From: Desulfocapsa sulfexigens DSM 10523
GTDB taxonomy: Bacteria > Desulfobacterota > Desulfobulbia > Desulfobulbales > Desulfocapsaceae
Reading direction: 5' to 3'
Length of the DNA stretch: 32,000 nt
Assembly (NCBI RefSeq): GCF_000341395.1
Contig: NC_020304.1
Coordinates: 540,001-572,000 of the forward strand
Part shown: in pieces, positions 13,052 to 15,496 of the stretch
How the letters are laid out: each line of letters begins with the position of its first letter
Position numbering within the stretch: the first letter of the stretch is position 1
The notes under the pieces: generated by a model
Database searches by the model: none
The model's input: the letters and a program-made list of their open reading frames with translations, nothing else
Told to the model about the DNA's origin: nothing
Translations under genes and position numbers: made by a program

Positions 13052-13177
13052 GCCGAACGCCAGAGATAACCCGCCCGCCAACCAGTTGGGCAACCAACTT
13101 GGCAGGAAGTAAGGTGTTCGCAATACCCTTAAAAAAACGCAGCTTCTCGCGGGTCGGCGTTAATTGAATTGTTAACT
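13052..13177 (-). repeat. attC-like site A
   Basis: 126 nt. Plus-strand ends are GCCGAAC...GTTAACT. The arms pair TAAC/GTTA, CCG/CGG and CCCGC/GCGGG, with single-base bulges confined to one arm. The TAA stop of the 412-aa gene lies inside the R'' box (AGTTAAC on the minus strand). Confidence 0.75.
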
Positions 13178-14410
13178 GTCGGTTGCTTGGATAAAAATTC
13201 CCTTTCTAGAAAAATATTGTAAACTTTTGTTATAATCCTGAAAATAATTTTGTTTTTTTGTGTAGTAGTACCTGTCGACAAATTCAACTAGTTCGATGCA
13301 GACATTGACAAGTTGTTTTGAGACTGTCTTGTGAAATAAGGAGGCAATATTTGAAGGCAGATCAGTTAAAATGCTGCTTGCATATTTTCCAGCATCACCG
13401 CTAGGTAGCACACTAGACAGGAAAAATGAAATTATAACAGACAATATGTATTTTTGATGAACATATCGCCTGGTAATCTTGAGGCTTTTTGCTATTTCTT
13501 CTATAGAATCAGCATGGTGAAGTTTTTTAAGTTCCTCATTTAAAGAATCTACAAATAACTCCCATGGCTTTTGCCTTGAAAGATCATTGCAGTCATCAAT
13601 AGTTAATCTGCAAATTAACTCAAATAGTGTGCAATGATTTTTTATGTAGATGTTTTTTGAAATGATGGACAGGCTATTTCCGTCTAGCCTATTTGTGTTG
13701 CTCGGGGTGGTTGCTAAAGCGGCAGAGGCATTTGCAGCAGCAAATGACTTGTCCAATGCCGAGTTGATTTCAATTAACCCAATATGGTCATTATATCCAA
13801 GATGTTCCATAAACTTATTTACAATTGACTCTCTTTGAAATAATTCAGAGTTGTTGTTGGCTTGATCCTCAATGTCAATAAGTGATTTTTCAATGTTTAA
13901 GTTTGTATTGATTGGAAACTGTTTGGCAAAAGTATCAGTAACTATATTATTTTTAACATGTTCTCTAAACTCCTTATCACAATCTTTCTCCCGAGAGATA
14001 AAGGGAGTGGTTTGTCGATATTTTTGCAAGAAGTCATTGAAAATTACAGACCAGTGATTTGATATATAACCTCTGTGCTCAAAATGGCTATTTAGTTCAA
14101 TATCTGTAAAATTGTTCTCTAGTTTCTTTAAGCGATTAGCAACATAAAGGTTGAAGTTTCCGTCATATTCACCTGAAAGGACATATTTTATTCGAGAGCT
14201 TTTCCACATACTCTCGCATGCTTTCATTAACATAGCTGTATCTTTGCACTTAGCAATAGCAGGAGCTGCAACAAGAAAAGTTGCTTCTGGAAATGCCAAA
14301 ATGTCCCATGCAAACTGGTGGAGTTTTGTTTGGAAAATTGACTTAAGGGCTTTTTCCGTTGCGCCTCCTTTGATGTTGTAATCTAAATAGTCCAGAAATA
14401 TTAGTGGCAT
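13172..14410 (-). CDS. Hypothetical protein (412 aa), second gene of the two-gene cassette 4
   Basis: Its start overlaps the methyltransferase stop (TAATG, 1-nt overlap). It is AT-rich and Lys/Asn-rich. One hydrophobic stretch (KYILSVIISFFLSSVLPSG) could be a TM helix. I recognise no catalytic motif. Confidence 0.75.
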   Translation of the reverse strand: MPLIFLDYLDYNIKGGATEKALKSIFQTKLHQFAWDILAFPEATFLVAAPAIAKCKDTAMLMKACESMWKSSRIKYVLSGEYDGNFNLYVANRLKKLENNFTDIELNSHFEHRGYISNHWSVIFNDFLQKYRQTTPFISREKDCDKEFREHVKNNIVTDTFAKQFPINTNLNIEKSLIDIEDQANNNSELFQRESIVNKFMEHLGYNDHIGLIEINSALDKSFAAANASAALATTPSNTNRLDGNSLSIISKNIYIKNHCTLFELICRLTIDDCNDLSRQKPWELFVDSLNEELKKLHHADSIEEIAKSLKITRRYVHQKYILSVIISFFLSSVLPSGDAGKYASSILTDLPSNIASLFHKTVSKQLVNVCIELVEFVDRYYYTKKQNYFQDYNKSLQYFSRKGIFIQATDS

Positions 14411-15342
14411 TAGCTTCTTTGGCCTTCTACCAGGTGGAATGGTTGGTATTGAATATAGCGCGCAAACGACTCGATATCTTTTTGTGGTTTTTGTGATCTG
14501 TCTAGTATTGTTTCAACTGTAGGCCCAAACACAAAATCCTTTGTAATTCCAAAATTATGCTGACATAAGAAGTCTTTATATAAATCAAAATGGTGGTAAC
14601 AATGGATAAAAAAGTTATCCCTCCCAAGCGTTTTAAGGGTGAAAAAGGATTTTTGGGTACTTAAAATTTTCGTAAATGAATACTCACTACCTTCCTTTTT
14701 GTAGAACCCGCAGGCTTTATAGTAATTGCTATTTATATCAATGATTATAACTGTTGATCTATTATTCAATACCCTTGATATTTCAGAAAATGCGACATCT
14801 GGCCTTACTATATTTAGGAGTGTCATCGAGACCAGTGCAAAATCGAAAGCACCTTCAACAAATGGTAGTTGCTCGCTTAGCCCTTGCACACAGGGCCGCT
14901 TAGCAGTGTTGTTACTATTAGGGGGTGTAACGATATCTAAACCAATGTACTTTTCTGAAAATACTTTCTTGATGATTTCCTCGGATACGAAAGAGTCTGT
15001 ACTGCCAATTTCGAAAATGTGCTTATACCTCTTATTATCAATAATACTCTCAAAAATAGGCTTAATGACATCAAGTTTGAGGCTGAAATTGCGTAAAATA
15101 GTATTTCGTTGTTCTGGCCGTTTTGAATGGTTAAGTACCCACAATGATCTAGATATGTTCTCAATGTTTGGAATCTCACCTAACACAAAAGGCTGCATTT
15201 GAATTTTTTTAGAGCCATCTATTACTGTGATTTTCAGAGTGGGAATATCTATATTGTGGATAGATATAATTTCATATTCATAGGAAAAATTACTCCACTG
15301 AATACTATCTAATATCTCTTCTTTTTTTGTGATATATTCCAT
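14410..15342 (-). CDS. Class I SAM-dependent methyltransferase-like protein (Methyltransf_11-like core, unknown ~100-aa N-terminal domain)
   Basis: The core IFEIGSTDSF...YIGLDIV...LSEQLPFVEGAFDFALVSMTLLNIVRPDVAFSEISRVLNNRSTVIIID matches the UbiE/COQ5-type layout. Motif I is degenerate (G-S-T-D-S instead of G-x-G-x-G). No DNA-methyltransferase motifs ([DN]PP[YF] or PCQ) are seen. I prefer the ATG at 15342; the track start at 15345 is TTG. Confidence 0.75.
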   Translation of the reverse strand: MEYITKKEEILDSIQWSNFSYEYEIISIHNIDIPTLKITVIDGSKKIQMQPFVLGEIPNIENISRSLWVLNHSKRPEQRNTILRNFSLKLDVIKPIFESIIDNKRYKHIFEIGSTDSFVSEEIIKKVFSEKYIGLDIVTPPNSNNTAKRPCVQGLSEQLPFVEGAFDFALVSMTLLNIVRPDVAFSEISRVLNNRSTVIIIDINSNYYKACGFYKKEGSEYSFTKILSTQKSFFTLKTLGRDNFFIHCYHHFDLYKDFLCQHNFGITKDFVFGPTVETILDRSQKPQKDIESFARYIQYQPFHLVEGQRS

Positions 15343-15370
15343 CAAGTTATAGATATGTAATTAGATGAAC

Positions 15371-15496
15371 AGTTAACGCAAAGCTAAGACGCGCGCCTAG
15401 CCGGGATTAAAGTAAGTTCGGGTTGTAATTGAGTTTGGCCGAAGCCGATTCAGCAAAGCGCAAGTTTGCGCGTCGTGCTTGAGCGTATTGTTGGCA
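15371..15496 (-). repeat. attC-like site B
   Basis: 126 nt. Plus-strand ends are AGTTAAC...GTTGGCA. The left arm aacgcaaagctaagacgcgcgc pairs with the right arm gcgcgtcgtgcttgagcgtattgtt, with G, G and T bulged on the right arm. It is a close paralogue of attC C. Confidence 0.8.

Follow-up and report, generated by a model that had tools for sequence, protein, structure and literature searches.

What is carried by an integron cassette that is far larger than its neighbours and whose two genes resemble no described system? The question is raised by cassette 4 of a five-cassette array of attC sites in Desulfocapsa sulfexigens DSM 10523, situated within a 32,000-nt stretch of contig NC_020304.1 (positions 540,001 to 572,000; this whole stretch is referred to as the window, and its first base is position 1). 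Gene 1 of the cassette encodes a putative S-adenosylmethionine (SAM) methyltransferase and gene 2 a protein designated here as X. The architecture of the cassette is textbook, and its cargo is unlike any described system or fold. The methyltransferase and X are inherited together as a mobile two-gene cassette, in which X is a conserved autonomous core and the methyltransferase a clade-specific accessory. The pair is tentatively interpreted as an accessory conflict module, and this interpretation is weighed below against other explanations of the same evidence.

A mobile two-gene cassette

With the cassette cut placed at G|TT of each R' box, cassette 4 begins at the TTAACT that follows the cut of the upstream R' and ends at the G of the R' in its own attC (13058..15376, minus strand). 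This gives a length of 2,319 bp, or ~2.19 kb without its own attC, compared with 766, 547, 448 and 1,001 bp for cassettes 1, 2, 3 and 5 (~0.32–0.88 kb without attC). An earlier note, made from the letters of the window alone, had given ~2.2 kb against 0.33–0.89 kb for the neighbours, which matches the lengths measured without attC. The 5' boundary is formed by the attC of the upstream cassette 3 (15371..15496, minus strand; R' GTTAACT, 15377→15371). The 3' boundary is formed by the attC of cassette 4 itself (13052..13177, minus strand; R'' AGTTAAC, 13177→13171; R' GTTCGGC, 13058→13052), which has the imperfect repeats, the AAC and GTT cores and the extrahelical bases expected of a cassette attC.

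The start of cassette 4 (GTTAACT, 15377→15371) and its own R'' (AGTTAAC, 13177→13171) match at 7 of 7 positions. The same relationship is found in cassette 2 (start GTTATAC, own R'' GTATAAC), cassette 3 (GTTGGCA and TGCCAAC) and cassette 5 (GTTCGGC and GCCGAAC), where the R'' is in each case the exact reverse complement of the start. This circular-permutation match between start and R'' in cassettes 2–5 indicates that the units existed as circles before their insertion at G|TT.

Gene 1 (14410..15342, minus strand) encodes a protein of 310 aa from the ATG at 15342. An alternative TTG start at 15345 would extend the product to 311 aa (14410..15345), although the database protein uses the ATG at 15342. 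X is encoded by gene 2 (13172..14410, minus strand), is 412 aa in length and shows 100% identity to hypothetical protein UWK_00461 of D. sulfexigens. Two features described in the earlier note were read directly from the sequence: the genes are joined by a TAATG stop/start overlap (14412→14408, minus strand), within which base 14410 is common to both, and the TAA stop codon of gene 2 (13174→13172) sits within the R'' AGTTAAC (13177→13171). The GC content of the cassette is 34–38%, compared with 48–52% in the flanking housekeeping genes. No promoter-like site was found ahead of gene 1 on the minus (coding) strand, and promoter-like sites were overall as numerous as the shuffled expectation. The region is a promoterless, horizontally acquired cassette encoding a translationally coupled two-gene operon.

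The same pair is present at two other loci (X loci outside the window are identified here by L numbers). In L001, a metagenome-assembled genome, the methyltransferase and X share 58% and 61% identity, respectively, with the proteins of the window and their genes overlap by 10 nt. In L003, a Logan assembly, the corresponding identities are 46% and 43%, with an 8-nt overlap. Gene order is the same in the window, L001 and L003, and the divergence is similar for both proteins. An attC covariance model, built only from the five window sites (which consequently match it by construction), found an attC directly after X in both L001 (5006-5091, E 2.6e-6) and L003 (4425-4513, E 8.4e-8). More matches were present upstream in both contigs, and together these matches identify the two loci as cassette arrays. 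The methyltransferase-X cassette of L001 has the same start (GTTAACT) and the same R'' (AGTTAAC) as that of the window. The same cassette therefore occurs in independent arrays (L001 and L003), as is expected of a mobile cassette, and all three members of the methyltransferase subfamily with visible context (3/3) adjoin X. The proposal in the earlier note that the pair is mobilized and translated as a unit is borne out by this recurrence in attC arrays with overlapping frames, and the co-occurrence of both genes in other genomes, which it had suggested as a check, was observed.

The extent of the conserved unit was defined by its upstream neighbours. A three-gene unit, consisting of a neighbour, the methyltransferase and X, was considered and rejected, as the upstream genes of L001 and L003 are mutually unrelated; the conserved unit is therefore exactly methyltransferase plus X. 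In L001 the upstream neighbour is a Shedu gene (SduA; PADLOC E 2.7e-173). Its stop codon lies in an R''-like AGCTAAC (L001 2788-2806) that matches the GTTAGCT left by the attC upstream of it, and only CAAGC separates this AGCTAAC from the GTTAACT of the methyltransferase-X cassette. The Shedu attC has thus been cut down to R''-5 nt-R', and the Shedu and methyltransferase-X cassettes are fused. In L003 the upstream gene (825-2132) encodes a 435-aa protein without a Pfam or PADLOC match, in which the sequence RNNFSAAH forms an Rx6H motif that, by eye, is reminiscent of HEPN RNases.

The methyltransferase, X and the partners of X

The gene 1 protein is 100% identical to a database entry annotated as a 'methylase involved in ubiquinone/menaquinone biosynthesis'. 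The Methyltransf_11-type core recognized in the earlier note scores above the Pfam gathering score (33.2 bits against 21.2, E 8.6e-8) across residues 112-200. All NCBIfam matches are far below their cut-offs, the nearest being of the UbiE/BioC type, and the profile matches in the PDB are solely to generic class-I methyltransferases that act on small molecules or peptides (1vlm, 1vl5, 3i9f and 3l8d). As in UbiE and BioC, an acidic residue is retained after strand 2 (D137, within GLDI), and a block of the form LPF...FDF..S...L is present. Gene 1 differs from Methyltransf_11 in its motif I, which reads G-S-T-D-S rather than G-x-G-x-G, and in possessing two additional parts of ~105 residues, one N-terminal (beta-rich, residues 1-105) and one C-terminal, for neither of which a domain match was found. 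When motif I is aligned with those of solved methyltransferases, h-E-I-G-S-T-D-S-F falls over h-D-x-G-C-G-x-G-F/Y. The description of EIGSTDS as a degenerate motif I therefore stands, only the first glycine being kept, as does that of an unassigned N-terminal domain of ~100 aa, residues 1-105 matching nothing.

DNA-methyltransferase motifs, reported as lacking in the earlier note, were likewise not found by a motif scan of gene 1 for [DNS]PP[YFW], PCQ/ENV and GxGxG. There was no Pfam match to N6_Mtase, DNA_methylase or MethyltransfD12, and no PADLOC match at E ≤ 1, the methyltransferase models of that collection included. On this basis gene 1 is a divergent, non-DNA-type class-I SAM methyltransferase, with SAM binding predicted. 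Its subfamily is small, with four members among 5.8 billion protein clusters, and the AlphaFold model computed from the alignment of these four sequences has a predicted local distance difference test score (pLDDT) of 45. At this score the model was unusable for a fold search. Within the C-terminal extension, the subfamily has an invariant C212 (ACGFY) and an invariant H248-C249-Y250-H251 (HCYH), which could constitute a metal-binding or substrate site.

A word-indexed search returned only five relatives of X. When 1.84 billion representatives were searched exhaustively with a profile, the family grew to 72 clusters at 50% identity, most of which are ~400 aa in length. X, judged by these searches, founds a rare, uncharacterized family. 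The earlier note could place no motif in X, and in agreement with this no significant Pfam, NCBIfam or PADLOC match was found, nor did 46 members of the family give any Pfam match or any PADLOC match at E ≤ 0.01. The PADLOC search for a known defence system that the earlier note had recommended thus returned zero matches at E ≤ 1 for both proteins of the pair. Profiles of X built from 6, 46 and 18 N-terminal-only sequences, the last covering 240 residues, retrieved nothing significant among PDB sequences. For two of these profiles the best or second-best PDB match was APPBP1/NAE1, which is the NEDD8 E1 regulatory subunit, although without significance (E 0.2-0.3, 13.6-13.7 bits); it is mentioned in case structural comparison should come to indicate an E1/ThiF-like fold. 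Foldseek searches with the model of X against the PDB and BFVD gave nothing below E 0.2. The fold and homology searches, also recommended in the earlier note, consequently yielded no confident homology for X and no housekeeping pathway was assigned to it. Two further candidates were rejected. Kinship to TIR-like/DUF4062 proteins received an hhalign probability of 0.1%, and a PIN-like DEDD arrangement was abandoned as zero PIN-domain proteins were present among the Foldseek matches.

The moderately confident AlphaFold model of X has a mean pLDDT of 74.8 and a predicted template modelling score (pTM) of 0.77. It consists of an N-terminal alpha/beta domain (residues ~1-165) with strands at 3-5, 44-48, 74-78 and 137-139, followed by helices. 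Across 46 members with identities down to 15%, the invariant or near-invariant residues are D10, K54, R93, E111, Y115, D145, R149, F191-Q192-R193, D220 and N227. The invariant polar residues fall mostly just after the predicted strands of the four-stranded alpha/beta domain and, in the model, look like a putative catalytic or ligand-binding site. The possible transmembrane segment described in the earlier note fared less well. A hydrophobic segment is present at residues 322-345, with a Kyte-Doolittle 19-mer mean of 1.64 (peak 322-340, threshold 1.6), but this value is marginal. The corresponding peak ranges from 1.5 to 2.1 among close relatives, many members of the family have no such peak (values below 1.5), and the segment is modelled as disordered (pLDDT < 50).

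X is not confined to the company of the methyltransferase. In L004, X alone forms a full cassette, with the start GTTAGCT, an R'' AGCTAAC just past the stop codon and an attC at E 2.6e-4. In L002, X is preceded by a weak attC match (E 0.035) rather than by a methyltransferase, and probably starts a cassette there. X is also without a partner in L005, L007, L017 and L018; L007 was the only locus added by a scan of genomes and metagenomes with the X alignment, and a further profile-based search for homologous proteins contributed little. Elsewhere X is tightly linked to other enzymes. In L008 a viperin-like radical-SAM protein of 291 aa is encoded by a gene that ends 4 nt upstream of X. It matches the PADLOC pVip model over its full length (E 6.7e-29), and its best NCBIfam match is viperin_w_prok, with 84 bits against a cut-off of 180 bits. 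In L009-L011 a radical-SAM gene starts 71 nt downstream of X. In L013 and L014 a GNAT gene (143 aa) overlaps X by 17 nt, and in L019-L021 a HAD_2 phosphatase gene (228 aa), carried on a conjugative element, overlaps X by 4 nt. The order of X relative to its partner is not fixed.

Taken together, an autonomous and often partner-less X combined with varied partners indicates that the methyltransferase is an exchangeable accessory rather than an obligatory half of the system. The self-contained pair proposed in the earlier note is thus upheld as a conserved unit in three arrays, but its two members are not equal partners. The pattern of a constant X with a swappable enzyme, viperin-like partner included, did not turn up in the literature searched. 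Likewise, nothing was found there that names UWK_00460, UWK_00461 or UWK_00462, or that links Desulfocapsa sulfexigens with integrons.

The locations of two of these partner pairs were also recorded. The viperin-like gene and X of L008 (2084-4259) are inserted just after nqrF, beside RelB/YafQ. The X-HAD_2 pair of L019 (7001-8889; also in L020 and L021) is positioned between relaxase/DUF3801 genes and coupling-protein genes, and near this pair, in L019-L021, a T4SS-DNA_transf gene is interrupted by a group II intron-type reverse transcriptase.

The surrounding attC array

The array that contains cassette 4 (12051..17138, minus strand) comprises five attC sites, at 16366-16488, 15819-15939, 15371-15496, 13052-13177 and 12051-12175, each of ~123 nt and on the minus strand. 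It is flanked at one end by tRNA-Met(CAT) (11790-11866, plus strand) and at the other by a fragment of an IS4-type transposase (117 aa; 17170-17523, plus strand). All five sites have an R'' ending in AAC, a 5-nt spacer and a long imperfect inverted repeat, and their 3' ends read ...CGTTxxxx in four of five cases and CGTAxxxx in the last. Unbiased alignment and folding with MAFFT/RNAalifold gave a 14-pair L''/L' stem in which 8 pairs carry compensatory double changes, and three bulged positions on the 5' side of the consensus stem, a hallmark of attC sites.

No integrase domain was found in the scanned open reading frames flanking the array, and no tyrosine-recombinase motif in six frames of the window. 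A complete integron, that is, an adjacent IntI, attI and Pc, is not present in the window, and the IS4 fragment occupies the spot where an integrase would be expected. Arrays of attC sites without an integrase are reportedly classed as CALIN. The absence of an integrase and the bounds set by tRNA-Met and the IS4 fragment mark the array as CALIN-type. In common with such arrays it has attC sites of the R''-L''...L'-R' form with bulges, co-oriented open reading frames each with a 3' attC, no integrase nearby, R'' boxes that match the start of their own cassette and, for cassette 4, a foreign GC content and the absence of a promoter. It departs from them in cassette 4, which has two genes and, at 2.3 kb, two to five times the length of its neighbours. 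The evidence suggests either a CALIN-type remnant or an island inserted beside the tRNA gene, from which an IS event removed the end carrying the integrase.

By sequence, the attC sites are of three types. The sites at 15819-15939 and 15371-15496 are ~94% identical over 52 nt, those at 16366-16488 and 12051-12175 have a common 38-nt block that is 82% identical, and the attC of cassette 4 constitutes a separate type of its own. Three attC types indicate that the array is a mosaic, unlike the homogeneous large sedentary integrons, from which it also differs in being short (five sites).

Further observations concern the end of the array adjacent to the tRNA gene. The R' of the terminal attC (12051-12057) reads GTACAGC, with GTA in place of the canonical GTT, and judged by this sequence the site is probably no longer recombinogenic. 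Cassette 5 (12057-13057, minus strand, 1,001 bp) carries two open reading frames, one of 164 aa (12511-13005) without a Pfam or NCBIfam match and one of up to 99 aa (12236-12535) that is rich in proline and glutamate, and it may be a second two-gene cassette. Directly after tRNA-Met lies an almost perfect inverted repeat of 18 nt (11873-11910), whose arms are separated by a 2-nt loop and which is bordered by A/T runs; it is probably a bidirectional terminator between the tRNA gene and the end of the array.

Possible functions of the pair

The methyltransferase-X pair is most readily read as an accessory conflict module, most likely of anti-phage or anti-mobile-element function, and a probability of about 0.4 is given to this reading of the sequences. 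X would be the core of the module. Its N-terminal Rossmann-like alpha/beta domain would act on a nucleic acid or on a phosphorylated ligand, probably of nucleotide type, by binding or converting it, through D10, K54, R93, E111, Y115, D145, R149, Q192-R193 and D220. Methylation by the co-translated methyltransferase would fall on the substrate or product of X, or on X itself, and would tune or gate the activity of X.

The surroundings of X in other genomes are of a kind with such a role. Defence, toxin-antitoxin or mobile-element genes are nearby in ~7 of 13 X contexts, a raw count from a small sample without background comparison. Genes near X include the Shedu gene of L001, those of an Eco47II restriction-modification system together with CTD11/MC7 conflict domains, RelB/YafQ (L008), a Dcm-type methylase, a PDC-S60-like Metallophos (phosphoesterase) gene with HATPase_c_3, a PIN-domain toxin-antitoxin module (L017), and those of a conjugative element (L019-L021). 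This defence-like context is circumstantial.

Two known systems offer close comparisons. Prokaryotic viperins (pVip) are reportedly accompanied by linked accessory enzymes such as nucleotide kinases. The arrangement in L008, where X lies 4 nt downstream of a viperin-like gene, resembles these in linking a nucleotide-modifying enzyme to a helper, and the L008 homologue of X could represent a viperin partner of a new kind, distinct from the nucleotide kinases. The window differs in having a methyltransferase in place of a viperin, and X is not a recognizable nucleoside monophosphate (NMP) kinase. Modules of pVip with genetically linked accessory enzymes have been described (Shomar et al., bioRxiv 10.1101/2023.09.13.557418). 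The enrichment of integron cassettes in anti-phage modules, mentioned in the earlier note, agrees with published work in which many anti-phage systems were found in integron cassettes, the two-gene systems Sucellos and Toutatis included (Darracq et al., bioRxiv 10.1101/2024.07.02.601686). Toutatis (tutA/tutB) of Vibrio cholerae is, like the methyltransferase-X pair, a single cassette in which a putative methyltransferase and a second gene always travel together. In Toutatis, tutA alone is sufficient for defence and the methyltransferase is dispensable (bioRxiv 10.1101/2024.07.02.601686), so that the gene other than the methyltransferase is the functional core, which parallels the cassettes that contain X only. 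However, TutA is a 64-aa protein that resembles the Hpy99I recognition domain, X is a 412-aa protein without a known domain, and no sequence kinship between them was detected. Moreover, defence by Toutatis has been demonstrated, whereas that by the methyltransferase-X pair is putative.

Several observations weigh against a conflict module. No homology to known defence proteins was found in PADLOC-DB v2 for the methyltransferase, X or 46 members of the X family, and X was absent from the phage, plasmid and IMG/VR collections searched. The family context rests on ~13 independent contexts without a statistical defence score, and, as neighbours within integron arrays are arbitrary, the Shedu gene next to the pair in L001 carries little weight. 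Small-molecule tailoring and resistance are also classic roles of Methyltransf_11, GNAT, HAD and radical-SAM enzymes. In motif I of the methyltransferase E112 and G114 are kept, but in all four members of the subfamily T/S and S stand in place of the second and third glycines, respectively. The model of X was computed from six sequences, with pLDDT values of 40-75 across the five models generated. A nucleotide ligand for X is purely conjectural. The suggestion that X contains a P-loop of the NMP-kinase type, which came from the stretch VAAPAIAKC and the link to viperin, was rejected, as hhalign against E. coli adenylate kinase aligned only the 21-residue stretch containing VAAPAIAKC, at a probability of 0.4%.

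A more specific form of the conflict-module reading would make X a new family of nucleotide-centred immune modules, built from a constant core that binds or converts nucleotides and from interchangeable enzymes, in which the methyltransferase-X pair makes or senses a methylated nucleotide analogue that serves as a chain terminator or signal. As it stands this is a long shot. The same low expectation applies to the idea that the viperin-like dehydratase, methyltransferase, acetyltransferase and phosphatase are all interchangeable nucleotide-modifying enzymes of such modules.

The main rival to a conflict module is small-molecule resistance or tailoring, in which X would act on a xenobiotic or metabolite (such as an antibiotic or nucleoside) and the linked enzyme would add a second or alternative modification, in the manner of bifunctional antibiotic-modifying enzymes on integrons. 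Integron cassettes classically carry drug-modifying enzymes, X functions as a single-gene cassette, and its invariant polar residues are enzyme-like. All five types of tightly linked partner are classic small-substrate enzymes; the nearest matches of the methyltransferase are UbiE/BioC-type and generic small-molecule class-I enzymes, and the GNAT partner has a weak resemblance to AAC(6') and RimI. X itself, however, is unlike any known resistance or biosynthetic enzyme, and its linked genes include no transporter, regulator or other pathway gene. One of its partners is viperin-like, which speaks for antiviral activity, and several of its contexts outside integrons are restriction-modification or toxin-antitoxin islands. 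This explanation is considered unlikely, although it deserves to be kept in view.

Less probable again is an enzyme-antitoxin addiction module, with X as a toxin silenced through covalent modification by the methyltransferase, or elsewhere by the GNAT, HAD or radical-SAM enzyme, so that the module stabilizes the cassette array or causes abortive infection. Two-gene cassettes of chromosomal integrons are often toxin-antitoxin systems, and in type VII systems (HepT/MntA, TglT/TakA) an enzyme antitoxin modifies the toxin; a co-translated enzyme could likewise neutralize or gate X by covalent modification. The tight and conserved translational coupling, the pairing of a constant protein with varied modifying enzymes and the presence of toxin-antitoxin genes near X in L008 and L017 are as such a module would predict. 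Against this, X differs from the toxins of type VII systems in often having no enzyme partner and in having no toxin domain. It is partner-less in at least six contexts, one of them a complete single-gene cassette, which is unexpected for a constitutive toxin. A strict toxin/immunity pair, one of the options raised in the earlier note, is made less likely by this frequent lack of any partner. In addition, neither a DNA-binding (helix-turn-helix) antitoxin nor a known toxin domain was found in either protein, the gene order of X and its partner varies, and proteins of 310 and 412 aa are large for such a pair, which does not have the make-up of a type II system.

A restriction-modification-like arrangement would have host RNA or DNA methylated by gene 1 and the unmethylated invader attacked by X, acting as a nuclease; it is improbable to a greater degree. 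The operon does place the methyltransferase first and the would-be effector second, in a way reminiscent of restriction-modification systems, X possesses invariant acidic residues (D10, E111, D145 and D220) with a D-x-D-like element after a predicted strand, and genuine restriction-modification genes are found near X in L012 and L013. Yet gene 1 has none of the DNA-methyltransferase motifs or Pfam DNA-methylase matches, X has no nuclease fold match in the PDB and, without a partner, would be self-destructive, and GNAT, HAD and viperin-like partners misfit a scheme based on the modification of nucleic acid.

Finally, there may be no functional link at all: an attC between two unrelated genes would have been lost, uniting them in one cassette, and the partners of X would reflect dense packing in variable regions. 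This has very little to recommend it. Cassettes do fuse through attC loss, as the Shedu cassette of L001 has done (attC R''-5 nt-R'), but three independent arrays retain the pair, with identities of 43-61% and with frames whose overlap could not accommodate a leftover attC, the methyltransferase subfamily has been seen exclusively next to X, and overlaps of 4 and 17 nt and a gap of 4 nt tie X to three other partner types.

Integron arrays contain very many genes without known function, and recent work has found many compact anti-phage systems among them; the methyltransferase-X cassette is a concrete, testable candidate for a further one. If the pair is a defence system, it would bring a new protein fold and possibly a new nucleotide chemistry to bacterial immunity, and the exchange of effector and accessory modules would be seen at the scale of a single cassette. 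Were X to be the constant core of a nucleotide-centred immune family, the viperin principle of antiviral nucleotide analogues would be extended to new chemistries carried in mobile integron cassettes. If instead the pair modifies drugs or metabolites, it would represent a new resistance-type determinant that is already mobile.

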